NCBI GenBank assembly: GCA_034331105.1
Contig: JAXQGB010000006.1
Coordinates: forward strand, 40,034 to 104,033
Origin: Synergistota bacterium
GTDB taxonomy: Bacteria; Synergistota; Synergistia; Synergistales; Synergistaceae
Direction: 5' to 3'
Length of the DNA stretch: 64,000 nucleotides
The notes beneath the pieces were generated by a model. The model was given only the letters and a program-made list of their open reading frames with translations, did no database searches and was not told the DNA's origin. Shown here piece by piece: positions 329 through 60,339 of this stretch. Numbering within the stretch: position 1 is the first letter of the stretch; each line of letters opens with the position of its first letter. Made by a program: the position numbers and the translations under genes.

Positions 329-1435
329 TCACTTAATTTTCCTTATAAGAGGCTGGGTGGCACACCTCAGCGAGCCTCCCTGCCCGTTGTGGGTCCCGAA
401 AAATACCCTGTGGACTTTGATATCCCTCTTCTCGAGCTCGGACTGCAGAAACCTGTTGTCGTTGTGCTCATTATAGGAGATGATGTAATTTTTGCTGTCG
501 ACCGGTATCCCATTTACTGCAAGCCTCTGAACGCTTTCAATGCTTACCTTGATCAGGTCCCATCCTTTTATATAGTCGGGCAGTCCGTCAACAAAAGCCT
601 CTTCACAAACTATCGCGAGGCCATCGCGCGGAACAGAGAGGACGCAGTCAAGATGGAGGACGTCCTCCCTCAGGGGGATCCGCACAACATCATATGAGCT
701 TCCCAGTATGTTTTTAAGCCATCTGAAGCCCGCTTCGTTTGATCCGACGCTTGGATTCCTGGTGTTGCCGACAAGGATAGTCCTGCCCAATACAACAACG
801 TCTCCGCCTTCCAGAAGCGGAGTATCAGGGGTGGGAGGGGCGAGCAATTCCGTGTGAGGCATTGAGAACCATCTGACATCACCCTTTGTGCATTTGTCCG
901 TCAGAACTTCTTTGAACCCGGATATGTCGACTTTTCTGAGCGGTGTCCGAAGATTGAGCTCTATCAGGTTGTTTCCTATCACGGCGATGTTATCTCTGGG
1001 AAAATCCTGGCTGAAGCCGTTAAGCAGGACGTCGGAGCCATAATTTTTCTTTATGAAATCAACAGTAATCTCTTTGGGACGAAACACTTTGACTCCAAGG
1101 GAATTTAAGATGTTGATCAGTGCAAGGTTCTCTTCTTCGAGCATTTCTGTCTCGTTTTTGCCTGTTTTGGGATCGATCATATCAGTCCACAGCATCCCTG
1201 CGGTCTTCCTGGCATACTCTGCTTCGTCCCGCGGCAATACTTTCATGGCGTTTTCGAACCATGGCGCACTGAGTGATGGGGACATCCCGTATGGAAGGCC
1301 GACGATCACTTCCTTGAGGTCTCCGTACTCATAGTCGACATAGACAGATTGTCCGGATGCTTCCGCTGTTAAAAGATCAAATGACCAACAGAAGCAGATA
1401 ATGACCGGAAACAGTATCAATGATGCTATTTTCAT
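329..1435 (-). CDS. Exported amidinotransferase-fold (guanidino-group modifying) enzyme
   Basis: C-terminal GGSLRCATQPL (catalytic Cys context), FPRDN and LEGGDV motifs. N-terminal hydrophobic signal MKIASLILFPVIICFCW...AEA. Start moved to the ATG at 1435, which lies 7 nt after GGAGGG; the ORF-track start at 1450 is a TTG. Confidence 0.6.
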   Translation of the reverse strand: MKIASLILFPVIICFCWSFDLLTAEASGQSVYVDYEYGDLKEVIVGLPYGMSPSLSAPWFENAMKVLPRDEAEYARKTAGMLWTDMIDPKTGKNETEMLEEENLALINILNSLGVKVFRPKEITVDFIKKNYGSDVLLNGFSQDFPRDNIAVIGNNLIELNLRTPLRKVDISGFKEVLTDKCTKGDVRWFSMPHTELLAPPTPDTPLLEGGDVVVLGRTILVGNTRNPSVGSNEAGFRWLKNILGSSYDVVRIPLREDVLHLDCVLSVPRDGLAIVCEEAFVDGLPDYIKGWDLIKVSIESVQRLAVNGIPVDSKNYIISYNEHNDNRFLQSELEKRDIKVHRVFFGTHNGQGGSLRCATQPLIRKIK

Positions 1436-1709
1436 AAGCGATCCCTCCAAGATATGGACAGTTGTTAATTACCTTTCAAAACTATAAAGGATTTGCTGCA
1501 CGGAAGTTTCAAGGTACGAGAGAACATTTGCCTCAATTATTTAAATGTAAGTATAGATCGAAACAGGGATGATGGCATAGCAAAATCTTTCAAACTTTGA
1601 AAAATATGATCGATCAGGTAATAAGAAGCATAGTGATCCGCGAAAAATAGCGGTGATATAATGGACAGGAATCAAGCCCGACCGACAGGGCAACGCCTTT
1701 TCGCAGAGA

Positions 1710-2222
1710 GTGGAATGGATGGACAGATTTTCAGATCTCTTCTCATATGATAAAACATCAAACAGGGACAGGGCGGAGGATGTTTCTCCCTTCAGTGTCG
1801 TTTTTGAAAAAAGAGCTATCGCTCAAACGATCCTTATTACCGTATTTACATTATTAATGCTGACTGCGGTCGCCCTTGTTTGGCCATGGGATGACCTTCC
1901 GCACCGAAGGCCGTTTGACATGGTTTTGAAGCTGATCATCTCCGGGCTGGCCGCAGCCGTGGCAGAGGAAATATTCTTCAGGGGCTGGATGCAGCCCACG
2001 CTGAGGAGGAGATATTCGGCGGCAGTTTCAATAGTGGCTGTAAACCTTGTCTTCGCGCCCCTGCACCTTATCGTTGCGCCCTATCTCATTTCGCTTCTCA
2101 CCTTCTTCCCGGGTCTGATAATGGGGTGGCTGCGTGAGAGATACGGAAATATACTTCCTTCAATTATTTTTCATTTTCTGGGAAACGTCTGGGCGATCTG
2201 GTTCTTTCCCTCGCCCTTTTAG
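1710..2222 (+). CDS. CPBP family intramembrane glutamic endopeptidase (CAAX protease-like)
   Basis: EEIFFRGW and FHFLGNVW motifs in a polytopic hydrophobic 170-aa protein. Confidence 0.75.
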   Translation: MEWMDRFSDLFSYDKTSNRDRAEDVSPFSVVFEKRAIAQTILITVFTLLMLTAVALVWPWDDLPHRRPFDMVLKLIISGLAAAVAEEIFFRGWMQPTLRRRYSAAVSIVAVNLVFAPLHLIVAPYLISLLTFFPGLIMGWLRERYGNILPSIIFHFLGNVWAIWFFPSPF

Positions 2223-2313: not shown

Positions 2314-2751
2314 ATGAAAATTATAAAAATCTTCGGCAGAAGGCGCGGTTTCACCCTTATTGAAATAATGGTAGTAGTCGTGATAATCGGCCTCCTTTCA
2401 GCTCTTGTCGGTCCCAGACTGATCGGACAGAGTGAAGAGGCAAAGATAAAAACTACAAGGACCCAGATCGCACAGCTGGAGCAGGTTTTGGGCCTTTTCC
2501 ATCTGGACAACGGTTTTTACCCGACAACAGACCAGGGACTGTCTGCCCTTGTGAAACCGCCGAGCACTCCTCCCGAACCGCTGAATTACAAAAAGAACGG
2601 TTATATGAAAAAGGTCCCCAAAGACGCCTGGGGCAGAGAATTTATTTATGAGTCTCCCGGCCGGAACGGAGACTTCGACCTGTTTTCATACGGGGCGGAC
2701 GGCCAGGAAGGCGGAGAAGACTCTAACTCGGATATAACGAACTGGGAATAG
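2314..2751 (+). CDS. gspG: Type II secretion major pseudopilin GspG
   Basis: Leader MKIIKIFGRRRG followed by FTLIEIMVVVVIIGLL (Glu at +5). C-terminal PKDAWGREFIY...YGADGQEGG is typical of GspG. Confidence 0.9.
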   Translation: MKIIKIFGRRRGFTLIEIMVVVVIIGLLSALVGPRLIGQSEEAKIKTTRTQIAQLEQVLGLFHLDNGFYPTTDQGLSALVKPPSTPPEPLNYKKNGYMKKVPKDAWGREFIYESPGRNGDFDLFSYGADGQEGGEDSNSDITNWE

Positions 2752-2757
2752 CAAAAA

Positions 2758-2789
2758 GGCGCAGCCTGATCAGGCTGCGCCTGCTTTTA
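2758..2789 (+). terminator. Rho-independent terminator after gspG
   Basis: GGCGCAGCCTGATCAGGCTGCGCC forms a perfect palindromic stem (2758-2781), followed by TGCTTTTA. Confidence 0.7.
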
Positions 2790-2911
2790 TCTCATCTTTA
2801 GGTTTTGCATCAGGCTGCCGGTACAGCCTGATGCAGCGTACTGTTCACCCCTGTGATCATTTTGTGTTGCCTGAGTCAGTTTAAAGGGACGTACCATTTT
2901 CTGAAAGGGAC

Positions 2912-4192
2912 ATGACAAGGATGGAAAAGGCAGCCGCAATAATTAGAAAGCATAAGAAAGCGATAATGCTCTTTTCTTCATTCATCATAATGGCAGCCGC
3001 AGCGGTATCGTTGTCTGTGGCAGGTGAGCTGTGCCTTCATGAGCCAAGCAGGGCTTCAGGTGAAGATGTGATATCAATAGGCGGAAGGGACCTGCTTAAC
3101 ATGTCCAATCTTACCCCTCCCGAAAGGGAACTATACCGCACGCTCTCGAAAAACGGGGGCGTAATAACTGATAAGATGATCTCCTCCATGTCAGACAACA
3201 GGCATTGGGACGAATTCATTCTCAAAAAGGACGAATCTGTGGGATCCGCCGCTAAAAAATACCATATCACGGCAGAAGACCTTCTTCGGATAAACCGCAT
3301 TGACGCGGGAAAAAAGAGGGAGGGGGATATCGTGATCTATGTGCCAAGAGGAAGGGAGCACATGGATGAGACCTCCTTCTTCGTCAAAGAAATGAAAAGA
3401 AGGGAAGCAGAATTTTTAAGGCAGAAAAAACTGGTCTCTGTGACCGCATACATTGTAAAAGAGGGGGATACCCTCTGGTCGATCGCCGAAAGGTTTGATA
3501 TCAGCGCGGATACGATAATAGGTTCAAACAGCCCGCAAAAAATCAACAGCCTATTACCGGGCACAGTCTTGCGGATACCCGACCGGGAGGGTATCTTTGT
3601 CAAAGTCCCGGAGGGGGAAAGTGTCGAAAGGCTTTCATCTCTCTATGGCACGAGAAGAGATCAGATCTGCGCCGCTAACGGCATAGAAACCGGCTCTCCG
3701 CTCTCTTCTGCCAGAGAGGTCTTTTTGCCGGGTGCAAATTATGCCGCAGTTATACAGACAGAAAGTGGAATGGTTAAAATAGCATCAGGAAGAGAGTATC
3801 TGTTGCGAAATACCCTTATATGGCCGGTCAGAGGAAGAGTTTCGAGCATGTTTGGCTGGAGGGGGCTCTCTTACGCCTCAGCAGGCAGCTTCCACTCAGG
3901 TCTGGACATAATGGCTCCATATGGAAGAGCGATAGTATCAGCGATGGATGGCGTAGTTGCCTATTCAGGCTGGATGGGAGGGTACGGCAAAACTGTCGTT
4001 GTGGATCATACAGACGGGATCACGACCCTTTACGGACACTGCAGCGGCCTGGCAGTCCAAAAAGGCGATCCGGTCTATTCCGGTCAGTTGATATCCTATG
4101 TTGGGAGCACCGGAAGGTCGACCGGCAACCATCTTCACTTTGAGGTCAGAAAGAACAGTATTCCGGTCGATCCCCTGAGTGCTCTCAGATAA
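2912..4192 (+). CDS. LysM-repeat M23 family metallopeptidase (membrane-anchored)
   Basis: N-terminal TM segment and three LysM-like segments (e.g. YIVKEGDTLWSIAERFDISADTIIGSN). M23 core FHSGLDI...DGVVAYSGWMGGYGKTVVVDH...GSTGRSTGNHLHFEV. Confidence 0.9.
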   Translation: MTRMEKAAAIIRKHKKAIMLFSSFIIMAAAAVSLSVAGELCLHEPSRASGEDVISIGGRDLLNMSNLTPPERELYRTLSKNGGVITDKMISSMSDNRHWDEFILKKDESVGSAAKKYHITAEDLLRINRIDAGKKREGDIVIYVPRGREHMDETSFFVKEMKRREAEFLRQKKLVSVTAYIVKEGDTLWSIAERFDISADTIIGSNSPQKINSLLPGTVLRIPDREGIFVKVPEGESVERLSSLYGTRRDQICAANGIETGSPLSSAREVFLPGANYAAVIQTESGMVKIASGREYLLRNTLIWPVRGRVSSMFGWRGLSYASAGSFHSGLDIMAPYGRAIVSAMDGVVAYSGWMGGYGKTVVVDHTDGITTLYGHCSGLAVQKGDPVYSGQLISYVGSTGRSTGNHLHFEVRKNSIPVDPLSALR

Positions 4193-4196
4193 TTTT

Positions 4197-5372
4197 CTAT
4201 CCGGTAGCAAGTGTCGAAAGATCAAAAATAGGCAGAAGCACTGCTATCACCACGAACCCGACAAGAAAACCCATTACAAGTATTATCAGAGGTTCTGCAA
4301 GGGTAGCGTATTTTTGCATCGATGACTGAGCGATATCCCAGCAGTTGCTGCCCAGCCGGATAAGCCCGTCAGGAAGATCCCTCCCGTTTTCACTGACCCT
4401 TACCACAGAGACTATCTCCTCAGGGAAGGACCCCTCTTTTTCAAGCCCCTGAGAAAACCTGTAACCTTTTCTTATATGGTCCTGCACAATTTGAAGCCTT
4501 CCTTTGACAGGATCGAGAGGTTCTGTGAGTTTAAGGGCCTGAATAAGCGGCAGGCCGGCTTTCAGGAGCGTCCCGGTCTGTGAAAATATCATTGAGAATG
4601 CAATGTTTTCCTTTATCTCCCTGAATATCGGGATGGTAATGCTCCTGCCGCTTCTGCGGAGGAATATGAAAACTATCAAAAGGGCGATCAGGAATGGAAT
4701 AAAGGCCACCCTGACAGCATCAGAAATGAAGATCAGAAGACGGGTCACAAAGGGAAGTTCTGCTCCTGAATCAATTACCAGCGCTGTCAGCCTTGGCACA
4801 ACAAACGTAAGAAGGAAGACTACCACTGCCATTCCAACCACGAACATCAGGAGCGGATAGGTAAGCGAAGAACGAAGCTTCCTTCGGAGATGGACCTCGT
4901 TTTGTATCATTTCAGCAGCTTTTTCGAGAATGTCAGGAAGCGAGGCGGATCTTTCTCCTGATTCGACCATGCCGACCAGGCTCTCTCTGAAGACCCCTGC
5001 GGCACGCATTGAAGCCGCAAGTGAACGGCCACCTTCGACAGATTCCCTCAGTTCGGTGTAGACAGGCTTTAGGAGCTTGTTTCTGGTCTGTCTCTGGAGC
5101 AGCCTGAGAACTTCAGTTATCGAAAGTCCGCTTTTGATGTAGGAGGAAAGTGTTATGCAGAAGAGGTGCTGGTCTTCCAGGCTGATCTGCCTGGCCCTCT
5201 TCCTGTGTCCTGAGAAAAAATTGAGCTTTCTGCTGCTTTCTTCTTTTATGCTTACTACTGTCAGTCCATTTGATACGAGCTCGCTGAGCAGCTCATTCTC
5301 ATTCGCTGCTTCTTTGCGGAGCTCTTTTTGACGGCCGTCTGCCGTGTAAACGTCAGCTTTAAAAAGGGGCAA
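4197..5372 (-). CDS. gspF: Type II secretion inner-membrane platform protein GspF
   Basis: 391 aa with the duplicated GspF-type architecture and three hydrophobic segments. Lies immediately after gspE (3-nt gap). Confidence 0.9.
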   Translation of the reverse strand: MPLFKADVYTADGRQKELRKEAANENELLSELVSNGLTVVSIKEESSRKLNFFSGHRKRARQISLEDQHLFCITLSSYIKSGLSITEVLRLLQRQTRNKLLKPVYTELRESVEGGRSLAASMRAAGVFRESLVGMVESGERSASLPDILEKAAEMIQNEVHLRRKLRSSLTYPLLMFVVGMAVVVFLLTFVVPRLTALVIDSGAELPFVTRLLIFISDAVRVAFIPFLIALLIVFIFLRRSGRSITIPIFREIKENIAFSMIFSQTGTLLKAGLPLIQALKLTEPLDPVKGRLQIVQDHIRKGYRFSQGLEKEGSFPEEIVSVVRVSENGRDLPDGLIRLGSNCWDIAQSSMQKYATLAEPLIILVMGFLVGFVVIAVLLPIFDLSTLATG

Positions 5373-5375
5373 GTC

Positions 5376-6860
5376 TTACACCTCTCCGACTACCCGGAGC
5401 ATTTCTTCGGGGGTCGTCTCACCGTTTGCGACTGCCTTTATGCCCAGTTCGAGAAGGGTGTAGAAACCATTTTTTTGTGCCAGTCTGCGCAGTTCGGGAG
5501 AAGGGGCTTTTTCCGCTATGGCTGCCTGTATCTCCGGAGTGACGTCAAATTGCTCATAAAGTCCGAAACGTCCGATATAGCCTGTTCCCCTGCACTTTTC
5601 GCATCCTCTTCCCCGCCATGCCTTATCCATTCCTTGCTGAAGGATCACTCCCGAAGCGGGGACCTCCTCCCTGCAATGGGGGCAGATCCTCCTTACAAGT
5701 CTCTGAGCGACTACTCCCAGCAAAGAGCCTGAAACAAGGTACGGTTCGATCCCCATATCGATAAGCCTTGTTACTGCGCTGATCGAATCGTTAGTGTGGA
5801 GCGTTGAAAGCACCAGGTGTCCGGTAAGCGAAGACTGTATGCCTATGTGGGCAGTGTCAAAGTCGCGCATTTCTCCTATCATTATGATGTCGGGGTCCTG
5901 ACGCAGTATCGACCTGAGGGAAGAAGAAAATGTAAGCCCGGCCTTGTCGTTTACCTGGACCTGGCCGACGCCCGGAAGGTCGTACTCAATTGGGTCTTCA
6001 ACGGTTATGATGTTTACTTCGGGCCTTGCCAGCGCCTGGAGGATAGCATAAAGGCTCGTACTTTTGCCTGAACCGGTCGGTCCGGTGAAAAGTATCATGC
6101 CGTTTGGCCGCCTAATTAGTTCTTCCAGCCTTTTTCTCTCTTCAGGCTTCATGCCAAGCTCCTCAAGCGACAGCAGCCCTCTTGCCTTGTCCAGAAGCCT
6201 CATTACAAGCCTTTCGCCATGCTGTGTGGGGAGTGAGCTGACCCTTATGTCGACCATACGCTCTCCGAGGCTTATCCCGATCCTTCCGTCCTGAGGGACG
6301 AACCTCTCAGCTATATCAAGGTTTGCCATAACTTTGACCCTGCTTGTGACCGGCGCCTGATGTCCTTTGGAGAGGCTGTATTTGTCTAGAAGCACTCCGT
6401 CCACCCTGTATCGCACTGTGACCCTGTCTTCATAAGGCTCTATATGTATGTCTGTAGCCCGTTCTTTTAGTGACTCTACGATCAATCCGTTTACAAGCCT
6501 TATGACAGGGGCATCGACGGTATCGCTCATTACTTCCTGGCGGACCAGTTCCGAGAGGTCGTTTACTTCCTCTATTGAGCTGAGTGTATCCTGGACTATG
6601 CCGCTTTTTATGTCGTAAAGGCTCCTTATGAGATGCTGTATGTCAGATGCCGGATATATTTCAGTGTCGCAGGACATACCAGATTTGGATGCGATCAGCT
6701 GTGCTTCCGTGAAAGCTGAGAGGTCCGAAAGGGCGACTGACATGACCCCCTCAGATATGCTGAGAGGAACGATCCCTTTATCGCGAAGAGTATCAAGGCT
6801 CACCCCGGCAGGGATAAGCTCCAGGATCTCTTCAGGCGAGGGCATGGGCTTCAGCGTCAT
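5376..6860 (-). CDS. gspE: Type II secretion ATPase GspE
   Basis: Walker A GPTGSGKST, Walker B-like DPDIIMIGEMRD, His box TGHLVLSTLHTN, and tetracysteine CPHC...CEKC. Confidence 0.9.
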   Translation of the reverse strand: MTLKPMPSPEEILELIPAGVSLDTLRDKGIVPLSISEGVMSVALSDLSAFTEAQLIASKSGMSCDTEIYPASDIQHLIRSLYDIKSGIVQDTLSSIEEVNDLSELVRQEVMSDTVDAPVIRLVNGLIVESLKERATDIHIEPYEDRVTVRYRVDGVLLDKYSLSKGHQAPVTSRVKVMANLDIAERFVPQDGRIGISLGERMVDIRVSSLPTQHGERLVMRLLDKARGLLSLEELGMKPEERKRLEELIRRPNGMILFTGPTGSGKSTSLYAILQALARPEVNIITVEDPIEYDLPGVGQVQVNDKAGLTFSSSLRSILRQDPDIIMIGEMRDFDTAHIGIQSSLTGHLVLSTLHTNDSISAVTRLIDMGIEPYLVSGSLLGVVAQRLVRRICPHCREEVPASGVILQQGMDKAWRGRGCEKCRGTGYIGRFGLYEQFDVTPEIQAAIAEKAPSPELRRLAQKNGFYTLLELGIKAVANGETTPEEMLRVVGEV

Positions 6861-8947
6861 TTTCCCTTGTCTTTCTCTTTTGCTTCCATTTCTTTCACAA
6901 GCTCGTTGTATCTTACCTTCCAGTCGCTCTTCTTCTCTTCCTGCTTATCTCCGCTCAGGGTCTTGTTGGGGTCGAGCATATCCTTTGTTACGCCTTCGTT
7001 CTTGATCGATTTTTCGTAATCGTCCTGATTCTTCATCAGTGTTCCGATCTCAGCCTGGCTAAGCTGCTGTCCTTCGCTGATTATGCTGTGGGTCATCCTT
7101 GAAGCGGCCCTGGGATCTTCCAGTATGTAAGGAGTCAGGAATATCATGAGGTCGACCTTTTCCCTCTGCTTTTCGCTGGATTTAAATAGGTTTCCAATAA
7201 GGGGGATGTATGAGAAGAAAGGCACCCTGTGCTTGAGCACTTTTTCTGCCTCCCTTATGAGGCCTCCGATTATTATCGTGTCTCCGTTGGCAACAAGGAC
7301 GTTTGTCTTAACTTCGCGTTTGGATGTTACAGGGGTCGGCGATCCCATCGTGGTAAGAAGATCCTCCACCCTCTGTTCTATCTCAAGGGCGACCAGGTTT
7401 CCGCTCCTTACATGCGGGGTGACAGACAAAATGAGGCCTACATCCTTGTACTCGTATGTGTTCTGAACAGCTCTCGGGTTGCTCGTATCTGTCAGGGTCC
7501 CCTTCAGCTGCGGGATGACCTGGCCTACCTGGAGATGGCTTGGAAGATTGTCGGTGCACATAAGCCGGGGCATCGAGAGTACGTTTATAGCATCAAACTT
7601 GTTAAGCATCTTTACATAGGTGTATATGAGCGCTTTGCCGTCCGTGTTGGTCGTCGTGTAAGTGTTCCCTGTAACAGGATTGGTATATATTTCCTCCGTT
7701 GTGATCAGTTTGTCGTAAAGGTCGATTATCTGGCCCGGGACCGAGGCGCTGCCCATCTGTATGTTTCCGGCGACCACCGCGTCACCGGCTATTCCGCCTC
7801 CCCAGGCTGCCCAGTCTATGCCGGCGCTGTTGAGTTTGTTAAGGTTGACTTCTGCTATCAGGCCGCGCAGCAGCACCTGCTTTGGCTGGATATCAAGCTG
7901 GACCAGTATCTCCTTGAGCGAGCCAAACTGTTCATGTGAGGCTGTGAAAACAAGACTGTTTGTAGGAAGGTCCGGGACCACCGAGGAAGGTATCGCTCCT
8001 TTGGGGTCGGGAGAAAGTTTGGCTGCTGTCGCGAGGATGCTGTTCATCTGTTCAGCGACGACTTTTGCATCTGCGTTCTGTAGGCGGTAGACATGGAAGC
8101 TTTCAGCTCGGGAAGGTACGTCCAGTATTTTTAGGATCCTTTCCGACTCCAGAAGGGCCTGGCTGCTTCCAATGAGGACGACACGCCTTGTCCTCTCGTC
8201 ACCCACCGCAAGAATGCCCGAAAGTCTGGATGAGGTGTCTTTGGACATAACATTCAGCTGAGATTCCACGACCTTTGGATTGGCATGTGTCAGGGTGAAT
8301 GCCTTTATGCTCCTTACGCTGTCCTGGGAGTCAAGAGCCCTTATCACGCTTACGGAACGGTTCAGGGCCGAGGCCTTGCCGGTAAGCAGTATCGCGTTTC
8401 CATTTTCAAGTGGTGTGACATTTATATCCGGTACAGCGGATCTGAGCGGTTCCGTGATGTAACCCGCCTTTACATGACGAAGTGGAACGACCTGGACAGT
8501 CAGGGCTTCACCGGGAGCTATGCTGCGGTCGCCCTTGAAAACGGTGTTGTTCAATGTCGGCCCAGAGCTGGCAGGCAATACCTTTGAATACCCGCCCATG
8601 TTCTGTATTGAGAGATTGTTCATCTCAAGCACGGAGAGCATTACTTCCCTTGCCTCTCTTAACGAGATAGTCTTTGGCGAGACGATAGAGACCTTACCTC
8701 CGACAGCGGGGTCCACGACGATATTTTCATTCAGGAGCTCCGACATGAATCTCAGGAACTTACTGATCTCAAGGTTGCTGAAGTTAAGCTGTACATTGTT
8801 TGACTGCCGCATCTGGCGGGCTGCCGCAGCAAGGTTTTGTTCCTCGTCAGTATTTTCCTGAGTCTGGGCATATGTGCATCCGGCAGATGAAGAGAAGATA
8901 AAGAAAAGTATAAAGATGAATGATAATAATCTGGTTTTTTTGAACAT
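6857..8947 (-). CDS. gspD: Secretin GspD
   Basis: 696 aa with a signal peptide, repeated secretin-N style domains and the C-terminal secretin core (...VPFFSYIPLIGNLFKSSEKQREKVDLMIFLTPYIL). ATGA overlap with gspE. Confidence 0.9.
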   Translation of the reverse strand: MFKKTRLLSFIFILFFIFSSSAGCTYAQTQENTDEEQNLAAAARQMRQSNNVQLNFSNLEISKFLRFMSELLNENIVVDPAVGGKVSIVSPKTISLREAREVMLSVLEMNNLSIQNMGGYSKVLPASSGPTLNNTVFKGDRSIAPGEALTVQVVPLRHVKAGYITEPLRSAVPDINVTPLENGNAILLTGKASALNRSVSVIRALDSQDSVRSIKAFTLTHANPKVVESQLNVMSKDTSSRLSGILAVGDERTRRVVLIGSSQALLESERILKILDVPSRAESFHVYRLQNADAKVVAEQMNSILATAAKLSPDPKGAIPSSVVPDLPTNSLVFTASHEQFGSLKEILVQLDIQPKQVLLRGLIAEVNLNKLNSAGIDWAAWGGGIAGDAVVAGNIQMGSASVPGQIIDLYDKLITTEEIYTNPVTGNTYTTTNTDGKALIYTYVKMLNKFDAINVLSMPRLMCTDNLPSHLQVGQVIPQLKGTLTDTSNPRAVQNTYEYKDVGLILSVTPHVRSGNLVALEIEQRVEDLLTTMGSPTPVTSKREVKTNVLVANGDTIIIGGLIREAEKVLKHRVPFFSYIPLIGNLFKSSEKQREKVDLMIFLTPYILEDPRAASRMTHSIISEGQQLSQAEIGTLMKNQDDYEKSIKNEGVTKDMLDPNKTLSGDKQEEKKSDWKVRYNELVKEMEAKEKDKGK

Positions 8948-9029
8948 GTCAGATCTCTCCCCGGTTGCTAGTATTTATCTCTGGATAGATGCTGTGATTT
9001 TTATGTTCTTCCGATTTCGTCTTCCTTTT

Positions 9030-9058
9030 TTTATAAACTTCCAGTAAAGGCTGTCCAA
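9030..9058 (-). promoter_or_regulatory. Candidate internal sigma70-type promoter ahead of gspD
   Basis: On the minus strand: TTGGAC, a 17-nt spacer, then TATAAA. It sits in the only sizeable gap (133 nt) inside the operon. Confidence 0.3.
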
Positions 9059-9080
9059 TAGAGGCGATAATGATACCCTA

Positions 9081-9479
9081 TCAGTCATAGGGCATATATA
9101 TGACGATATTCCGCTCTTCTTTCGTGTTGCTGACATTGATCTTTTTCCATCTCATATCTTCTTCGGCAACGATCATCTCTGCCTGTTCCGGAGCGGAAAG
9201 GTCAAGTCTCCCGAAATCCTCGCCGAACATTTCCTTTGTCCCGTCAGATGTTTCCCATATTATATCGCCGCTAGTGCCTGACGTCTGTACTGTTTCCAGC
9301 ATTATGCCTGTCCGGATAGCTTTTGCTTGTTGCATAAGCGTGATCTCGGACTTTGCCCCTCTGAGCCCTTCCTGTCCAAGCATAACAAGCTTTATTGCTG
9401 CGGTCGCAGTCAGGGACAGGATCACTACAGCCACCATAACTTCAACTAGTGTGAAGGCGCGTTTCCTTTTAATATTCAT
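9081..9479 (-). CDS. Minor pseudopilin (GspH/I-like) with a prepilin-type N-terminus
   Basis: MNIKRKRA-FTLVEVMVAVVILS: a methylation motif with Glu at +5 but Ala, not Gly, at -1. 132 aa. Confidence 0.7.
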   Translation of the reverse strand: MNIKRKRAFTLVEVMVAVVILSLTATAAIKLVMLGQEGLRGAKSEITLMQQAKAIRTGIMLETVQTSGTSGDIIWETSDGTKEMFGEDFGRLDLSAPEQAEMIVAEEDMRWKKINVSNTKEERNIVIYMPYD

Positions 9480-10450
9480 TTTACCTGATATTTTAATTCA
9501 AGAGGTTTGCCGGACCTTTCGACCTTTACGTCAAACCTTGTGCCGGACATCATGGAATTGACAGCGTTAGTGGCATCGCTGAGATTTGATATCTCGACTC
9601 CGTTTACTGCTTTTATTATATCGCCCTTCTGGACTCCGACCATACCCAGGACACTGTCAGGATCTATCCTTGCAAGCTGCATGCCGCCGCCCTCGGCAGG
9701 GATCATCCTCATTTTGGCTATCTCGTCATAAGGGTTCATCAGCAGCTTGTCCACCAGTTCCCTGGGGACCACTCCCTCTACCCCTTCCGATGCAGGCTCT
9801 ATCCCAGGATGTACCTTTTTTTGAGGGGCCTTTTTAGGGGGAGCGTTCCTTGGCTGAGGTCGGACTGAAGCCCTTTGCGGCGGTGTCATGTTGCCGGTTG
9901 AGATGTTCATAAACAGGAGATGTCCCTGACCACCCTTAAGGAGAGTGACTTGCAGGTATTTGACATTGTCCAGTTCGTAACCGTTTATCTCCTCGCCTTT
10001 CAATATGAAACGCGTTAAGGATCTGTCGCGGATCCAGGCTCCAATTCCGGGCAGCGTTCCTGCAAGGCTCATGTCTTCGATTTGATATGACTGATCGCCG
10101 GAACTGTTTTTGCCGTTACCCGGCATAAGAGCTCCAAAGGGATTTAAATCGGAAAAATCCCGGTAGGGATCGGCGTTCATAGAGTGGACAAGGGATGGAA
10201 CTCTTTTTGATATTGCCGCTGCAAGATCATATTTTGCCTCAGCCGATCTGTGCAGCAAAGAAAATTCCATGAAAAAACATATAACTGAGGCGATGATGAG
10301 GCCTGCAAGAAATGATACGGCAGAAAGAACTAAGTCCTTCGACTGCTTTTTACCGTCAGAGTGATACCCGTTTCTGAACAGCTCGCACATCTCATCTTTC
10401 AATTCGTACAAAATCGAGCTGAGGCCGTCTTTCACCTTGATATCCTCCAT
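9476..10450 (-). CDS. gspC: GspC-like protein: single TM segment plus a C-terminal PDZ domain
   Basis: TM segment LSAVSFLAGLIIASVICFF. C-terminal PDZ-like GMQLARIDPDSVLGMVGVQKGDIIKAVNGVEISNL. Sits before the secretin. Confidence 0.65.
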   Translation of the reverse strand: MEDIKVKDGLSSILYELKDEMCELFRNGYHSDGKKQSKDLVLSAVSFLAGLIIASVICFFMEFSLLHRSAEAKYDLAAAISKRVPSLVHSMNADPYRDFSDLNPFGALMPGNGKNSSGDQSYQIEDMSLAGTLPGIGAWIRDRSLTRFILKGEEINGYELDNVKYLQVTLLKGGQGHLLFMNISTGNMTPPQRASVRPQPRNAPPKKAPQKKVHPGIEPASEGVEGVVPRELVDKLLMNPYDEIAKMRMIPAEGGGMQLARIDPDSVLGMVGVQKGDIIKAVNGVEISNLSDATNAVNSMMSGTRFDVKVERSGKPLELKYQVK

Positions 10451-11031
10451 TCCCCGGAACCGATCTTTGTCAGGGGGATCACCTGCATATTGCTCAGCAT
10501 TTGAAGCGCCCTGTCAAACTCATCAGGAAAACGTGCGGTCATATCCGCGGCCACTATCTTACCCGTATCTTTTGAAATACTTAAAAAGCCCTTTGCCGAT
10601 ACGTCACCGGCGAGTGTAAGGTCATCCAGATATAGAGTGTCTCCGCCGGATCTTATATTTGCAGTGCCGGAGGTCCATTTGAGTTTTTGCTTTGTTACTG
10701 TTGTGATCTCACCGCTTCCGAAAGAGAGAGTTGCTGTTCGGGAGGCGGATATCAAAGATCTTATTACCTTCGGGTCCACCTTGGCTTCATTGACTTTTAT
10801 CGAGACTGCGGGCATGTCTGCGGTGATGCCTCTGTAGATGAATTCTCTATCCAGAAGACCCTCTGTGTAAATATCCCGGAATGAGATGAAGATATTTTTT
10901 TCTGAAGCTGACAAGGCAGCCCGGCTGGCGGAATATTCTGCCGCTGTGTCCCATGGAAAAAAGAGTGCCATGCCTGCAATAAGGCCGCATGATCCTGCAA
11001 AAATGATTTTAAGAGTTTTAGAGAGAGTCAT
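10432..11031 (-). CDS. Single-TM periplasmic protein in the GspN position
   Basis: 199 aa with N-terminal TM segment IIFAGSCGLIAGMALFF. Assignment rests on position and topology only. Confidence 0.3.
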   Translation of the reverse strand: MTLSKTLKIIFAGSCGLIAGMALFFPWDTAAEYSASRAALSASEKNIFISFRDIYTEGLLDREFIYRGITADMPAVSIKVNEAKVDPKVIRSLISASRTATLSFGSGEITTVTKQKLKWTSGTANIRSGGDTLYLDDLTLAGDVSAKGFLSISKDTGKIVAADMTARFPDEFDRALQMLSNMQVIPLTKIGSGEWRISR

Positions 11032-11491
11032 CGCCGGTTGCTCCTATCAGCATTGATGCGTTAATGAGCCTTCCCTTTTGAGCGGAATTTATAGCCCTTA
11101 TATCTGCCGTCCTTACCTGAAGGCCCTTTTCGGAGAGGCGCTTCAGGAAAGAGATAAATTCCGCTCCGTTCAGTGCGGTCATCTGAACGGTCAGCCCTGA
11201 TGATCCTGAGTTCATCAACCCCACTTGGCCTTTCAGGTTGAGTTCATTTATCGCATCCGTGAGGAGAGACAAAGGCTCTCTGCCCTCTGCAGAACTTCTT
11301 GAAGGATATGAATAAAAGGTATTTGCCGCATCAAGGATCCTTCCCGTGTCCATGATCCTCTCTTTGCTGCTGTTCAGAATGGCCGAAGCTTCCAGAAAGA
11401 GCGCTGTCCCCGCTGTCCAGACTAAAAGTGCGAGCAGCCCAAGGCGGATCAGCTTTTTTGTCTCAGGCAGTCCCCTCATCTCATCTATCAT
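11018..11491 (-). CDS. GspM-like single-TM protein
   Basis: 157 aa with N-terminal TM segment LGLLALLVWTAGTALFL. ATGA overlap with the upstream GspL-like gene. No motif-level proof. Confidence 0.4.
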   Translation of the reverse strand: MIDEMRGLPETKKLIRLGLLALLVWTAGTALFLEASAILNSSKERIMDTGRILDAANTFYSYPSRSSAEGREPLSLLTDAINELNLKGQVGLMNSGSSGLTVQMTALNGAEFISFLKRLSEKGLQVRTADIRAINSAQKGRLINASMLIGATGDDSL

Positions 11492-12708
11492 TTTGGCCCG
11501 CTCCTCTCGGAACTTTCAAGCCCAATAGAAAAACGCATTCCTGAACCCGGTATCTGTTGGATGTCAGATATCTTCGCATTGAAGCCGTTTTTATTCAGGG
11601 AATCGCGAAGGGATTCAACGGGAACGCTTCCGGCCGCTGTGCCCTGGATCTCAGTCCGCTCAGTCCCGTATCTGATCGCATCAAGTTTCAGCGATCCTGA
11701 TGAAGCAGATGCTATCCATGCAGCCGCTATATTGTCCAGAGTCTGTTCCATGGTCATGTTCGTCCCGCCCGCGCCGAGGTTCTTAATTTTTGCTGCGGAA
11801 GATGCCAGCGGGCTGTTGGATCTCTCTCCAAAAGCTATTTCGTAAATTTCAAAGGGGACGTTCTCAAAATGATCCCTGTTGAGTCTGCTGTAAAAAAAAG
11901 CTCCTGCCGAGAGGACAAGAAACAAGAGGCCGAGGAAGAGCGCAGCCCTGGCTGTGCTGAAGGCCGCTGCGAAAAAGGATTCCAATTTTCTGGCACTGTC
12001 GGCGCCTTTCGTTGAAAGGTCAAGGGAGGCCGAGCCCTTGAATGACCTCAGGGTCTCACTTCCTGCTTTTTGGATACTTGTTGCAGAAAGAGATGATCTT
12101 TCTGCAAGGATTATATTATCTATCGGGACGTCTGCGGATAGCGAGTAATCGACAAACCATTTCTCAAGGTCATTCACGGAGTTTTCTGCGGAAGGTGTCC
12201 ATTTGTACAGTAGAGGAGAACGGTCCTTAAAAAGCATTCCGGAGGTCCCGCTTTCAGAGTTCCATATTGCCAGGCCACTACCCTCTGTCTCATGGAACAT
12301 GGCCAGTGGGGCCGGCCAGAAAGTTATGCAGTCGCCCAGCCTTCCTTCTGTCTCCTCTATTTCGGCCTTCGAAACGAACCATACGACTCCCTCTGTCCTG
12401 TCAGATCCCTGTTCTGTCACCTGGGGTATCATGAGGATGGAATCGTCATCGTTTCCGAGCGCATACCTGAATGACATCTTCAGGGCATCTCTCAACCTCC
12501 CGTTTTTCCCGAAGGGGAAGGAGAATGGATGGACTGAGAGCGTCCTGAGCTGAAGGAGCGCGATGACCCGTACGTTCTGTGCAGAAGGCAGGGCAACATT
12601 GCGATCGACAATATCCTCTTCAGTACAGAAACGGATATTTTCATCCATTTTTGCATTGCTCCTCGCATTTTGTGAGAATAAGTCTTTCAGTTTGTTGGAA
12701 ACTGTCAT
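11488..12708 (-). CDS. GspL-like bitopic assembly-platform protein
   Basis: 406 aa: about 255 aa cytoplasmic, TM segment FLGLLFLVLSAGAFF, about 130 aa periplasmic. This is the classic GspL topology and position (after gspK, before the M-like gene). Confidence 0.5.
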   Translation of the reverse strand: MTVSNKLKDLFSQNARSNAKMDENIRFCTEEDIVDRNVALPSAQNVRVIALLQLRTLSVHPFSFPFGKNGRLRDALKMSFRYALGNDDDSILMIPQVTEQGSDRTEGVVWFVSKAEIEETEGRLGDCITFWPAPLAMFHETEGSGLAIWNSESGTSGMLFKDRSPLLYKWTPSAENSVNDLEKWFVDYSLSADVPIDNIILAERSSLSATSIQKAGSETLRSFKGSASLDLSTKGADSARKLESFFAAAFSTARAALFLGLLFLVLSAGAFFYSRLNRDHFENVPFEIYEIAFGERSNSPLASSAAKIKNLGAGGTNMTMEQTLDNIAAAWIASASSGSLKLDAIRYGTERTEIQGTAAGSVPVESLRDSLNKNGFNAKISDIQQIPGSGMRFSIGLESSERSGPK

Positions 12709-12717
12709 CTGCCTTGC

Positions 12718-13647
12718 CTATTCCTCCCAGCGCACCACGCTGCACGAGTCGTTTTCCCGTTTTAATATGATCCTGAAATTCCTCTCCTTTTCATCTACAT
12801 ATGATACATTGATATTCAGACGAAAATAAGAGCTTTCAAAAGCGATAACATTCGAAAGTCTTGTGATGACCTCCACAGGGATGTTCGGGATCTTTTTCAG
12901 GTCATCCAGGCTTCTTATAGGATACATCATCCTAAACGCGGCAAAATTCCGAGCCTGGGCAATGTCGATCTTCTCGTCCATTATTGCTATCACCTGTGGC
13001 GAAGCGGTGTTGATGTTGACCTTTTCTTTTCCGTAAACGGTCAGATATCCTGCCAGTCCCACTGGGATGTCCTTTGTACCCCACAGCATCCCGTCGTCTA
13101 TCTCATTTATTAGTTTGAGCTCGGCAAGATCGCTCAGTTCGCGGTTGATGCTTGTGCTCCTTTCGCTTCCTTCCAGCTTTTGGCTGCTGTCGGAATCAAT
13201 GAAATCCAAGACTACCGCGGAAAGCCAAGGGAAACCTACATTTTCCCATATCCTATCCCATGCGCCGGAGTATTCAGATCTTATGGTGACCTTATCCGGC
13301 AGCAAAATACCGTTTATCGGGATCCTGTCATCAAGAGGTTCTATGTTGACTTCTGCTGTGAAGCCGTCTATCTCCGACCTCAATACACCATTATAAGCGT
13401 AAAGAGGCTCAGATCGGCTGTCATATCCGTTATTATCCTCAGAGATCTTTTTTGATGCATACTTGCAGGCGATCTCAGCAATGCTCCTGCTCCTGGCGAT
13501 GAAGCTTACCGCCTCTGCCCTTTTCATTTCAGTCCTTGCATACCACGAAAACGCTGTCGCAGCAGTAAGCAGCAACGTGACTGATATCAATACGGATATG
13601 AGGATGAACCCCTTATTCTTTGAGGATCGTCGGCAGCGAATCTTCAT
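12718..13647 (-). CDS. gspK: GspK-like minor pseudopilin
   Basis: N-terminus KNKGFILISVLISV (prepilin-like, no Glu at +5, as in GspK). VNINTASPQVIA motif. 309 aa. Confidence 0.7.
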   Translation of the reverse strand: MKIRCRRSSKNKGFILISVLISVTLLLTAATAFSWYARTEMKRAEAVSFIARSRSIAEIACKYASKKISEDNNGYDSRSEPLYAYNGVLRSEIDGFTAEVNIEPLDDRIPINGILLPDKVTIRSEYSGAWDRIWENVGFPWLSAVVLDFIDSDSSQKLEGSERSTSINRELSDLAELKLINEIDDGMLWGTKDIPVGLAGYLTVYGKEKVNINTASPQVIAIMDEKIDIAQARNFAAFRMMYPIRSLDDLKKIPNIPVEVITRLSNVIAFESSYFRLNINVSYVDEKERNFRIILKRENDSCSVVRWEE

Positions 13648-14251
13648 AAACTTGCTTTCTCCCGTTTAGTGTTATCGTTATCCTCATGGCCTTCGGGAGT
13701 CCTCCCGTATATTCATCGGACCATGACTCGCCTGACCAGACGGAGAGTTTTAACCCCTCTGCATCTTTGAGCACCATTTTGCCCTCTTCCGGCCTCAAGC
13801 TGTCTGTGTCCAGAGCTGTCGGTCCCGCCTCTTGGTCGGATCCCTTTGCCGCAGAACTCCATCCAGGTATCTCCCATCTGTAGAGTCCAGGTTTATATTT
13901 ATTTAGGCCGGATGAAGATACTATCTTATAAACTATCAGCCCCGGCGCTTTATTCTCCTTCACAGGAGCGGCTGACCAGACAAGCAGCCTGTCATCCTCC
14001 CTGACAGTAAAGCCTTCCTTGTGAACAGTCCGAAAGATCGGAAAAGAACTGCTTTTGGCAAAATTCCTTGTATCGTAAAATATCCTGTCGGCAGCTTCCA
14101 TCACTTTCATGCTTTTGCCCCAGTCCTTCTGAACGGTCTCAAGGGACTGCACTGTGAAGACGAGGGGAGCTAGGGCAGCGACGGCAATAATGCCGACCAG
14201 CCCCACTGCCAGAATTATTTCTATCAATGTGAAACCCTTCTGTTTTTTCAT
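13613..14251 (-). CDS. Minor pseudopilin (GspJ-like)
   Basis: MKKQKG-FTLIEIILAVGLVGIIAV prepilin motif. 212 aa. First gene of the operon. Confidence 0.6.
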   Translation of the reverse strand: MKKQKGFTLIEIILAVGLVGIIAVAALAPLVFTVQSLETVQKDWGKSMKVMEAADRIFYDTRNFAKSSSFPIFRTVHKEGFTVREDDRLLVWSAAPVKENKAPGLIVYKIVSSSGLNKYKPGLYRWEIPGWSSAAKGSDQEAGPTALDTDSLRPEEGKMVLKDAEGLKLSVWSGESWSDEYTGGLPKAMRITITLNGRKQVYEDSLPTILKE

Positions 14252-14403: not shown

Positions 14404-15174
14404 CTACTTATCCTGCTGAACAGACCTGTAGATCGTGAAAAGAGAAGCCAGAGTACCAATAAGGACAAAGCCGGCAAAGATCAGCAGCCCTCCGTTTCTT
14501 AGTCCCTCTTCCCTTACAGGATCGGTCAAAAGACGAAAGGCACCGTAAGCAAGTATGAAGAGAGGAGTAAGCAGTGTATGTCCACGCGCCCTCTTTTTTA
14601 AAAAGATCTTTTCAGCCGCAGTCAGAAACAGCATCAGCCCCAGCATGAAGGCTGATTCGATCAAAGGATATGGGTATCGGAAAATGGAAGCATGATCATT
14701 AGGATAATGCACAGCGAACCACGGCAGCGGCGATTTGTCGAGACCGATCCCGCGGCAGCATCCGTCGAAAAAGCATCCCAGCCTCCACACGGCTATTGCG
14801 GCTGCAGCAGGTATCATCGCAGCATCGGCGAAGTCATTCCATCTGAGTTTTCCCCTGTATGACTTATATATGCCGGCAAGACCGCCGAATAATATCCCGC
14901 CGGAAGAGGAAAGCTCGGCAGGGAAGAAGCCTCTGAATGAAGGGTCATTTGTAAAAAGCAGGACGGCTTTGCCAAAAAAGTCAAAAAAGAGAGCACCTGC
15001 AGCGGCTGCAAAAAAAGTCCACACGATCGCATCTGTGGTCCCGTTATGGTCGAGGCCATATTTATTTACAGCCCTGGAGCGTGTCCAGTACATGAAAAGG
15101 GAGACGGCAGCAAACCAAAAAAGATAACTGGTCCTGACAGTTATAAAACTGTACTCAAAGAGGATCGGGCGCAT
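14404..15174 (-). CDS. lgt: Prolipoprotein diacylglyceryl transferase family protein
   Basis: Polytopic 256-aa protein with a WRLGCFFDGCCRG motif, a Cys-rich variant of the Lgt GR.GNF.NGE signature. Confidence 0.6.
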   Translation of the reverse strand: MRPILFEYSFITVRTSYLFWFAAVSLFMYWTRSRAVNKYGLDHNGTTDAIVWTFFAAAAGALFFDFFGKAVLLFTNDPSFRGFFPAELSSSGGILFGGLAGIYKSYRGKLRWNDFADAAMIPAAAAIAVWRLGCFFDGCCRGIGLDKSPLPWFAVHYPNDHASIFRYPYPLIESAFMLGLMLFLTAAEKIFLKKRARGHTLLTPLFILAYGAFRLLTDPVREEGLRNGGLLIFAGFVLIGTLASLFTIYRSVQQDK

Positions 15175-25693: not shown

Positions 25694-25769
25694 TGGAGCC
25701 GCCTCCCGGACTCGGACCGGGGACCCCATCCTTACCATGGATGTGCTCTACCTACTGAGCTAAGGCGGC
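25694..25769 (-). tRNA. tRNA-Thr (anticodon GGT), CCA encoded
   Basis: Manual cloverleaf: acceptor GCCGCCT/AGGCGGC, anticodon arm CATCC-ATGGTAA-GGATG, T arm CCCGG-TCCGAGT-CCGGG. Confidence 0.9.
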
Positions 25770-25806
25770 AACCAATAATGCGGTAAGGGCATTTTGGGCA
25801 AAATAA

Positions 25807-25892
25807 TGGTGGTAGGAGCTGGATTTGAACCAGCGTAGGCTCTCGCCGACAGATTTACAGTCTGTTGCCTTTGACCACTCGGCCATCCTACC
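25807..25892 (-). tRNA. tRNA-Tyr (anticodon GTA), long variable arm, CCA encoded
   Basis: Acceptor GGTAGGA/TCCTACC, anticodon loop CTGTAAA, T arm GCTGG-TTCAAAT-CCAGC. Confidence 0.9.
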
Positions 25893-25960: not shown

Positions 25961-26179
25961 GCCAGCACTTGGGCGAAAATGTCCTGCTTTCTGACTGCAC
26001 TTAAATGGCGTCCTGTGCCGCTTGATGTGATGTTCATGCCTGTGTAAAAAATGATATCTGTTTATGAAGAATTAAAACAATCCCTGCCTCTTATGTTAGA
26101 ATATGCGCACATGATGCAGGCACAAGAATGCAAATAAATGAACGGTTCCGGTTTTTGAAGTGCGGCTCATTGATAAAAA

Positions 26180-26354
26180 ACTGAATATCAGCGTCTTTTA
26201 AGGGGGAATCCGGTGCAAGTCCGGAGCGGCCCCGCCACTGTTACCCTTGATGGGAAGTCAGGCGACCCGAGAAAAGATGATGGATGTTATGCGCGGGCGT
26301 TGTTCATCCTCATTGTGTAAAATTATTGAGGAAGCCGTTCGGCTTCCTTTTTTG
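26180..26354 (+). promoter_or_regulatory. Cobalamin riboswitch with terminator expression platform
   Basis: AAGGGGGAATCCGGTGCAAGTCCGGAGCGGCCCCGCCACTGT core with B12 box GCCACTG at 26234-26240. Hairpin AGGAAGCC-GTTC-GGCTTCCT plus T-run at 26329-26354. Confidence 0.85.
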
Positions 26355-31994: not shown

Positions 31995-32271
31995 ATAACG
32001 TCATTGGAATTTCAGTCAAGGGAATCCGGTCAGATGCCGGAGCAGCCCCGCTACTGTGACCGCGACGAAACCGTATTTAGCCACTGTCTGAGGATGGGAA
32101 GGCACGGGAGTAGGATGAACGGGAGCCAGGAGACCTGCTGAAATACCGTATCGTTGATCATCGCGCGGGCGAGAGGCGGCAAACTGTATCCTGACAGGCA
32201 TATCTGTCTGAGGATACGAAATATGTTTGTCACAGAGGGACCCCGGATATCAAGGGAGTCCCTCTTTTTTT
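31995..32271 (+). promoter_or_regulatory. Cobalamin riboswitch with terminator expression platform
   Basis: AAGGGAATCCGGTCAGATGCCGGAGCAGCCCCGCTACTGT... core with B12 box GCCACTG at 32080-32086. Terminator AGAGGGAC...GTCCCTCT plus T7 at 32234-32271. Confidence 0.85.
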
Positions 32272-60251: not shown

Positions 60252-60339
60252 GGAGAGCTGTCCGAGTGGTCTATGGTGACTGACTTGAAATCAGTTGGGT
60301 GTCACAGCCCCAGGGGTTCGAATCCTCTGCTCTCCGCCA
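60252..60339 (+). tRNA. tRNA-Ser (anticodon TGA), long variable arm, CCA encoded
   Basis: Acceptor GGAGAGC/GCTCTCC, anticodon loop CTTGAAA, T arm AGGGG-TTCGAAT-CCTCT. Confidence 0.9.

Follow-up and report, generated by a model that had tools for sequence, protein, structure and literature searches.

What kind of machine is encoded by a run of ten minus-strand genes (14251 to 4197) in a 64-kb stretch of contig JAXQGB010000006.1 from an uncultured Synergistota bacterium (hereafter the window), and what does it carry? An earlier reading of these letters (the sequence-only reading) had proposed a divergent machine resembling a type II secretion system (T2SS) in a non-proteobacterial diderm, with the gene of the major pseudopilin, gspG, detached from the others. 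We conclude that the locus is an intact member, with a clade-specific arrangement (Table 1), of a described and annotated T2SS subclass, the one associated with the Synerg-CTERM sorting tag. This Synergistota system probably moves folded periplasmic proteins, notably those with the Synerg-CTERM tag, across the outer membrane. Synergistota are diderm anaerobes that are common in guts, digesters and oral disease but have been little studied. To our knowledge, none of their secretion systems has been studied experimentally.

Protein identities were assigned by Pfam and NCBIfam profile searches, bit scores being compared with the curated cutoffs of the models. The secretin GspD passes TIGR02517 (373.6 bits, cutoff 351.35), and the major pseudopilin GspG passes TIGR01710 (189.3 bits, cutoff 88.85). 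Lineage-specific SYNERG models match the four proteins that had been described by topology in the sequence-only reading. GspC passes NF041616, T2SS_C_SYNERG (280.5 bits, cutoff 200), GspL passes NF041617 (335.7 bits, cutoff 150), and GspN passes NF041619 (178.7 bits, cutoff 140). The best match of GspM is NF041618, with 107.2 bits, 13 short of the cutoff of 120; Pfam T2SSM is matched at E=1.9e-4. GspK aligns end to end with NF037980 (84.9 bits, cutoff 130) and exceeds the cutoff of Pfam T2SSK (29.4 bits, cutoff 24.2). The ATPase GspE contains PF00437 (T2SSE, 439 bits) and an MshEN N-terminal domain, and scores better with the GspE model TIGR02533 (591 bits, cutoff 630) than with PilB (502 bits). 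The platform protein GspF has two stretches of PF00482 (T2SSF, 160 bits), and its best NCBIfam model is TIGR02120 (231 bits, cutoff 424).

Some of these matches would be expected as well for type IVa pili or competence (Com) pseudopili. Indeed, the PilB, PilC and ComGA/ComGB models give substantial scores for GspE and GspF too, and a generic prepilin motif is found in the pseudopilins. However, no protein of the locus matches the models for PilM, PilN, PilO or PilP, PilT appears only as a weak match of GspE itself, and the secretin that passes the GspD model fails the PilQ model (181 bits, cutoff 284). GspG exceeds the cutoff of its equivalog model, GspK carries the T2SSK domain, GspC, GspL and GspN pass T2SS-specific models, and GspM, just under the cutoff, also has such a model as its best match. 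Because the pilus genes are missing and the T2SS profiles match, the pilus and competence readings, which the sequence-only reading had itself raised as possible refutations, are refuted at the level of profile searches, and we give them practically no chance. The profiles classify the set as a T2SS.

The subclass was described in silico by Haft (2023; bioRxiv 10.1101/2023.06.07.544157) as a "divergent subclass of T2SS" in Synergistales. Partial phylogenetic profiling for Synerg-CTERM in Dethiosulfovibrio peptidovorans retrieved nine T2SS genes and MrtS, and the hidden Markov models (HMMs) NF041616-NF041619 were made for the divergent GspC, GspL, GspM and GspN (10.1101/2023.06.07.544157). The window proteins are also present in GenBank. 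GspC and the 132-aa pseudopilin have 100% identical entries from a Synergistota metagenome-assembled genome, on a contig of 128,605 bp. Within MDY9920305-MDY9920317, PGAP names GspG (MDY9920305.1), GspD, GspN (MDY9920312.1), GspK and a T2SS F-family protein; GspC is named as well. The 212-aa pseudopilin is called "type II secretion system protein", and the neighbouring Lgt-like protein "prolipoprotein diacylglyceryl transferase family protein". GspM is left hypothetical because it misses the NF041618 cutoff. Thus the locus adds no new kind of machine, and the novelty implied by the sequence-only reading is not upheld, as the subclass is in the Haft preprint and PGAP already annotates the contig as a T2SS. 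The calls of a divergent system with a detached gspG are supported, and the non-proteobacterial diderm is a member of Synergistota, all close relatives of the window locus being Synergistaceae.

The likeness to the Synerg-CTERM-associated subclass, itself known only in silico, consists of GspC, GspL and GspN that pass its HMMs, a GspM just below, an adjacent mrtS and the same phylum. The window differs in its clade-specific layout: mrtS and gspG are convergent with the operon, a gene with LysM and M23 peptidase domains (LysM-M23) lies between them and the operon, and an Lgt-family gene occupies the upstream slot that in most lineages belongs to a Wzy_C-family gene. Compared to the canonical proteobacterial Gsp/Pul/Eps operon (gspC-O), proteins D, E, F, G, J, K, L, M, N and C are all recognisable in the window, C, L, M and N only by lineage-specific models. 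The order is permuted to J-K-L-M-N-C-pp-D-E-F (pp denotes the 132-aa pseudopilin), there is no gspO or pilotin gene nearby, and there are three minor pseudopilins, none of which can be assigned to GspH.

A scan with one genome per species gave 28 Synergistota loci, which were compared with the window by tblastn with all window proteins. The core, from the gspJ-like gene through K-L-M-N-C-pp-D-E to gspF, is kept in these 28 genome loci wherever the contig allows, and the flanks vary. The phylum thus stably keeps a T2SS whose gene order is permuted and whose locus has only three minor pseudopilins. In three loci (L015, L019, L021) all genes form one co-directional cluster, mrtS-J-K-L-M-N-C-pp-D-E-F-gspG. 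In L027 and L028, gspG follows gspF and is itself followed by an extra pseudopilin gene. The clade of the window (L001, L003-L005) has the Lgt-like gene directly upstream of the operon. The contigs of L001 and L004 extend to the mrtS-gspG pair, which lies beyond gspF and is convergent with the operon, with the M23 gene between; the contig of L003 ends within the M23 gene. Apart from the window clade (L001, L003, L004), a LysM-M23 gene neighbours the T2SS in L081 alone, where its position is different. Since mrtS, the core and gspG are contiguous and co-directional in L015, L019 and L021, the split layout with the M23 insertion is a derived, clade-specific rearrangement, other Synergistaceae having a contiguous cluster.

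The position just before the gspJ-like gene, in the same orientation, is taken by a gene of about 616 codons from the Wzy_C family (O-antigen ligase / PglL-like) in 17 of the 28 loci (within L006-L028) and in L086-L089. The same slot contains the Lgt-like gene in the window clade and mrtS in L015, L019 and L021. No Wzy_C-family homologue was found in the window. Examples of the Wzy_C-family gene are L086:4315-6165 and L088:1851-3704; dnaB (and parB) often precede it.

The sequence-only reading held that the substrates and architecture cannot be inferred, a claim that is not supported. It overlooked mrtS (1710-2222), a gene adjoining gspG that encodes the predicted sorting protease of Synerg-CTERM surface proteins and, as the MYXO-CTERM and GlyGly-CTERM systems suggest by analogy, points to a likely cargo class. 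The MrtS protein scores 188.6 bits with NF040589 (cutoff 130) and only 40 bits with the MrtX model, and its translation contains the motifs EEIFFR, FAPLH and HFLGN. The gene adjoins gspG in the window, L001, L004 and L085, and immediately precedes the gspJ-like gene in L015, L019 and L021. The mrtS genes of L015, L019, L021 and L085 pass NF040589 with 192-211 bits (the first three with 193-211 bits), and the copies in L001 and L004 are 91% identical to that of the window (tblastn). As judged from these neighbourhoods, the linkage of mrtS with the T2SS recurs in two independent arrangements, adding evidence of another kind to the published co-occurrence. The link of type II secretion with Synerg-CTERM sorting, published from in silico work, thereby gains independent support from gene neighbourhoods.

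A T2SS is needed for surface delivery of GlyGly-CTERM proteins in Vibrio and of MYXO-CTERM proteins in Myxococcus (Haft 2023, 10.1101/2023.06.07.544157; PMC11980579). In the latter, the myxosortase MrtX was demonstrated experimentally to cleave MYXO-CTERM, and the proposed order is lipidation, cleavage and export by the T2SS (PMC11980579, mBio 2025). The Myxococcus xanthus system (PMC11980579) resembles the one considered here in its Cys-containing tripartite C-terminal tag, its CPBP intramembrane protease and T2SS-dependent surface delivery. It belongs to another phylum and has a different tag and myxosortase subfamily; its pathway is experimentally supported, whereas that of Synergistota is deduced. 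Vibrio cholerae, with Eps, GlyGly-CTERM and rhombosortase, shares T2SS-dependent surface display after intramembrane cleavage of a C-terminal anchor. However, its protease is a rhomboid serine protease, its tag lacks Cys, and its Eps operon has the full C-N set including GspH and GspI.

We infer the cargo class and the order of steps from Haft's profiling and, by analogy, from the experiments on MYXO-CTERM/MrtX in Myxococcus and GlyGly-CTERM/rhombosortase in Vibrio. GspE would serve as the ATPase and GspF as the platform, GspL, GspM and GspC, possibly with GspN, would form the assembly complex, and GspD would be the outer-membrane channel. GspG would be the subunit of a piston-like pseudopilus, with GspK, the GspJ-like protein and the small third minor pseudopilin making up a reduced tip. 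The Synerg-CTERM tag consists of a Ser/Gly-rich motif with an invariant Cys at its end, a transmembrane (TM) helix and an Arg cluster. A tagged protein would be exported by Sec and kept in the inner membrane by the TM helix of the tag. The Cys of the tag would presumably be lipid-modified, the adjacent intramembrane protease MrtS would then remove the TM helix, and the T2SS would bring the protein to the cell surface.

Several observations weigh against this functional reading. GspE, GspF, GspK and GspM score below the curated equivalog cutoffs, and no prepilin peptidase (GspO/PilD) was seen in the 64-kb window. The neighbourhood link is not universal, as most Synergistota loci have no mrtS or gspG within 10 kb of the core. 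No C-terminal tails resembling Synerg-CTERM were found in the window or in the 28 related loci by regular-expression scans, made in place of the TIGR04564 HMM; the only matches were in spurious antisense open reading frames (ORFs). Genes for tagged cargo would then be expected in other parts of the genome. The sequence-only reading had allowed for an orthologous locus characterised by experiment; a search of the literature found no such Synergistota T2SS. Finally, a T2SS usually has several kinds of cargo, among which soluble exoenzymes may matter as much as tagged proteins or more.

The last point can be extended to a general-purpose T2SS that exports mainly soluble exoenzymes, such as proteases and peptidases, in an organism with an amino-acid-fermenting lifestyle, the proximity of mrtS being incidental. 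This would be compatible with delivery of tagged proteins, and it agrees with the complete machinery of canonical type, with the distance of mrtS from the core in most loci and with the lack of a tagged substrate in the neighbourhood. On the other hand, mrtS is linked to the T2SS in two arrangements, in lineages where GspC is only about 41% identical, and the phyletic pattern of Synerg-CTERM is also that of the T2SS cassette and of MrtS (Haft 2023, 10.1101/2023.06.07.544157). We thus consider this general-purpose reading rather unlikely as the main account, and delivery of Synerg-CTERM proteins the better explanation. Could the locus instead be a decaying or non-functional remnant? The detached gspG, the lack of GspH and of a prepilin peptidase in the window, the Ala at position -1 of the 132-aa pseudopilin and the related locus L085, where the operon is missing between the Lgt-like gene and gspG and a remnant of the M23 gene is left, could be seen in this way. 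However, all ORFs are intact and have coupled junctions, 28 genomes show the same reduced set of genes, and the ratio of nonsynonymous to synonymous substitution rates (dN/dS) relative to L004 is 0.05-0.25 for all 14 genes out of 14, which indicates purifying selection. Decay is therefore very improbable.

Of the minor pseudopilins, the 212-aa protein matches Pfam T2SSJ at E=0.0068, and seven of 16 members of its family match this domain, the best one at 5e-6. The profile of the family matches EpsJ (2RET_B, 3CFI_B) at E=0.035, and among pilin-type chains EpsJ is the sole match that goes past the N-terminal pilin helix. We therefore refer to this protein as a candidate GspJ-like pseudopilin, although it is only weakly recognised. 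In all Synergistota loci covering the position, the gene of the 132-aa pseudopilin is found between gspC and gspD. Its product has Ala at position -1 (residue 8, RAFTLVE) and not the near-invariant Gly, a substitution shared by L001, L003-L005 and L009. Ala at -1 is also seen in some homologues of the GspJ-like protein, e.g. in L006 and L018-L022.

Assignment of the 132-aa pseudopilin to GspH or GspI was tried and dropped. A Pfam scan of 15 family members retrieved only N_methyl, the family profile matched only the N-terminal helix of pilins among PDB sequences, and hhalign against small GspG, H, I and J sets (L030, L033, L043, L045) did not discriminate between them. An AlphaFold2 model from a 26-sequence alignment has pLDDT 59.7, with the globular part below 50, and is too poor for a fold search; at this low confidence it shows a long N-terminal helix and four strands. 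No GspH is recognisable in the window or in any of the 28 Synergistota genome loci, and the window and most related loci contain no fourth minor pseudopilin. Two distant Synergistales loci have an extra prepilin-type gene of about 138 codons directly after gspG (L027, about 16299; L028, about 16298). Its product may be the GspH-like subunit that is missing elsewhere.

A motif scan for prepilin peptidases gave nothing real in the window or in the loci L001-L089, which include the 28 Synergistota genome loci. The window has nine real multi-TM ORFs (a tenth, at 9100-9561, is an antisense artefact). Three of them are MrtS, GspF and the Lgt-like protein, four were judged to be transporters from their sequences only, and the two uncharacterised ones have no Pfam match to Peptidase_A24. 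The gene of the prepilin peptidase is often encoded elsewhere in the genome. The sequence-only reading, which had seen no prepilin peptidase, no pilotin and no full H/I/J set in 64 kb, is confirmed insofar as the window has no recognisable GspH, GspO or pilotin. Since the 28 Synergistota loci contain neither the prepilin-peptidase motif nor GspH, the reduced pseudopilin set and the missing peptidase gene appear to be typical of the subclass and not a defect of the window locus. GspD was considered as a self-piloting lipoprotein secretin. Its signal peptide ends in SSSAGC-TYA, which is lipobox-like, and many homologues have L-[AS]-A-C at this place. However, other homologues have no Cys here, and an AxA-type site follows; lipidation of GspD is thus doubtful, and this idea was dropped.

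The Lgt-like gene beside the operon deserves a separate consideration. Its product matches Pfam LGT with 65.5 bits and TIGR00544 with only 42.3 bits (cutoff 118.9). Relative to Lgt of E. coli (5AZB), R143, G154, Y235 and R239 are kept, and H103 is replaced by S, N146 by C, E151 by C and E243 by D. The use of N146C and E151C as marks of a non-canonical Lgt was weakened by L083, where an Lgt encoded next to lspA has the same GCFLNGCC and passes TIGR00544. There, lspA is followed by two tandem LGT-family genes (L083:2399-4247), both with a GCFLxGCC variant of the signature; the second one passes TIGR00544 (155.8 bits), whereas the first does not (102.9 bits). Away from T2SS genes, the nearest relative found is the copy in this lspA-LGT-LGT tandem that scores below the cutoff. 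The family of the window protein has 22 clusters, whose named members are all from Synergistaceae, with the exception of one fragment labelled Bacteroidia.

The gene adjoins the T2SS in L001 and L003-L005. In L081, where GspC is 42% identical, the M23 gene, the Lgt-like gene (L081:1467-2237) and gspJ through gspF are on one strand with spacers of 10-23 nt. In L085 the Lgt-like gene (771-1556) is next to gspG-mrtS, the operon being absent. The gene is thus found with the T2SS, M23 and mrtS-gspG genes in three different arrangements. The dN/dS ratio of the gene is 0.10, which again indicates purifying selection. The Cys-modifying "Lgt-like acyl-transferase" of myxosortase-type sorting is listed as unidentified (PMC11980579), and for this reason the window protein can be named as a tentative candidate for the missing Cys-modifying enzyme of Cys-CTERM sorting pathways: a dedicated paralogue lipidating the invariant Cys of Synerg-CTERM tags before cleavage by MrtS. 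We consider this a long shot. The points against it are substantial: 23 of the 28 genome loci lack the gene near the T2SS, the protein could be the sole Lgt of these genomes, and MrtX processing works in E. coli without a dedicated enzyme (PMC11980579). Membership of the gene in the secretion system is uncertain.

The coordinates and junctions of the locus (Table 1) were taken from a list of ORFs and from direct reading of the 64-kb window. The T2SS, MrtS, a peptidoglycan hydrolase and a divergent Lgt-family enzyme are all encoded inside 13.5 kb.

Table 1. Genes and a terminator-like site of the T2SS locus in window coordinates.
Feature	Coordinates	Strand	Remarks
mrtS	1710..2222	+	CPBP/Rce1-type glutamic intramembrane protease, myxosortase family, Synerg-CTERM system
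gspG	2314..2751	+	major pseudopilin
terminator-like hairpin, bidirectional	2757..2782	.	11-bp stem, 8 GC pairs, then T-run
LysM + M23 peptidoglycan metallopeptidase	2912..4192	+	convergent with gspF; possible accessory gene; Pfam LysM 73 bits, Peptidase_M23 117 bits
gspF, inner-membrane platform	4197..5372	-	391 aa
gspE, assembly ATPase	5376..6860	-	494 aa
gspD, outer-membrane secretin	6857..8947	-	696 aa; N0, three Secretin_N stretches and secretin domain (Pfam)
132-aa minor pseudopilin, GspI-sized	9081..9479	-	N_methyl motif
gspC	9476..10450	-	324 aa; TM segment, HR-like region, PDZ end
gspN	10432..11031	-	199 aa
gspM	11018..11491	-	157 aa
gspL	11488..12708	-	406 aa
gspK, minor pseudopilin	12718..13647	-	309 aa; KGFILIS, no Glu+5; VNINTAS
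gspJ-like minor pseudopilin (candidate)	13613..14251	-	212 aa; KGFTLIE
divergent Lgt-family membrane protein	14404..15174	-	152 nt upstream of operon, same strand

The ORF list agrees exactly with the ten minus-strand genes, gspG and the LysM-M23 gene of the sequence-only reading, and its pseudopilin and NINTAS motifs were all found in the translations. Of the four ATGA overlaps claimed there, three were found (11488-11491, 9476-9479, 6857-6860) and the fourth was not. Longer overlaps are formed by J/K (35 nt), M/N (14 nt) and N/C (19 nt); the N/C junction becomes a GTGA overlap if a GTG start is used, matching the 319-aa GspC of GenBank. Short gaps separate K/L (9 nt) and E/F (3 nt). Translational coupling is thus consistent with the overlaps, but not with the ten-gene run as a whole, because a gap of 133 nt with a promoter-like site precedes gspD, between it and the gene of the 132-aa pseudopilin. 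The location of gspG on the opposite strand, with a strong terminator-like hairpin after it and with LysM-M23 between it and the operon, was read correctly. However, its description as monocistronic is not established, because mrtS is on the same strand 91 nt upstream and no terminator-like site was found in these 91 nt.

A gene at 329-1450 (-), divergent from mrtS, encodes a protein with a signal peptide from the amidinotransferase / arginine-deiminase superfamily, and is found in the same position in L001 and L004. No Synerg-CTERM tail was observed in this protein. In L085 (Logan SRR26037629, 3.5 kb) the order DctM, Lgt-like, gspG, mrtS is kept without the ten-gene operon between, and a C-terminal remnant of about 77 aa is left of the M23 gene. 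The operon may have been lost or relocated here, or the assembly may be at fault.

The remaining part of the window encodes a TonB-dependent receptor and a TolC-like outer-membrane factor (both by Pfam), and ORFs resembling an RND pump and ExbB/ExbD/TonB as judged by inspection of their sequences. Together these fit a diderm. Two cobalamin riboswitches were found, at 26179-26288 (+) with 52 bits and at 31996-32156 (+) with 105 bits. The second one precedes the gene of the TonB-dependent receptor (32361-34340), and the first one precedes ORFs that by eye resemble a substrate-binding protein, a permease and ExbB/ExbD/TonB. These genes probably form a B12 uptake regulon. The window also contains genes of tRNA-Thr and tRNA-Tyr (25694-25892) and of tRNA-Ser (60252-60339).

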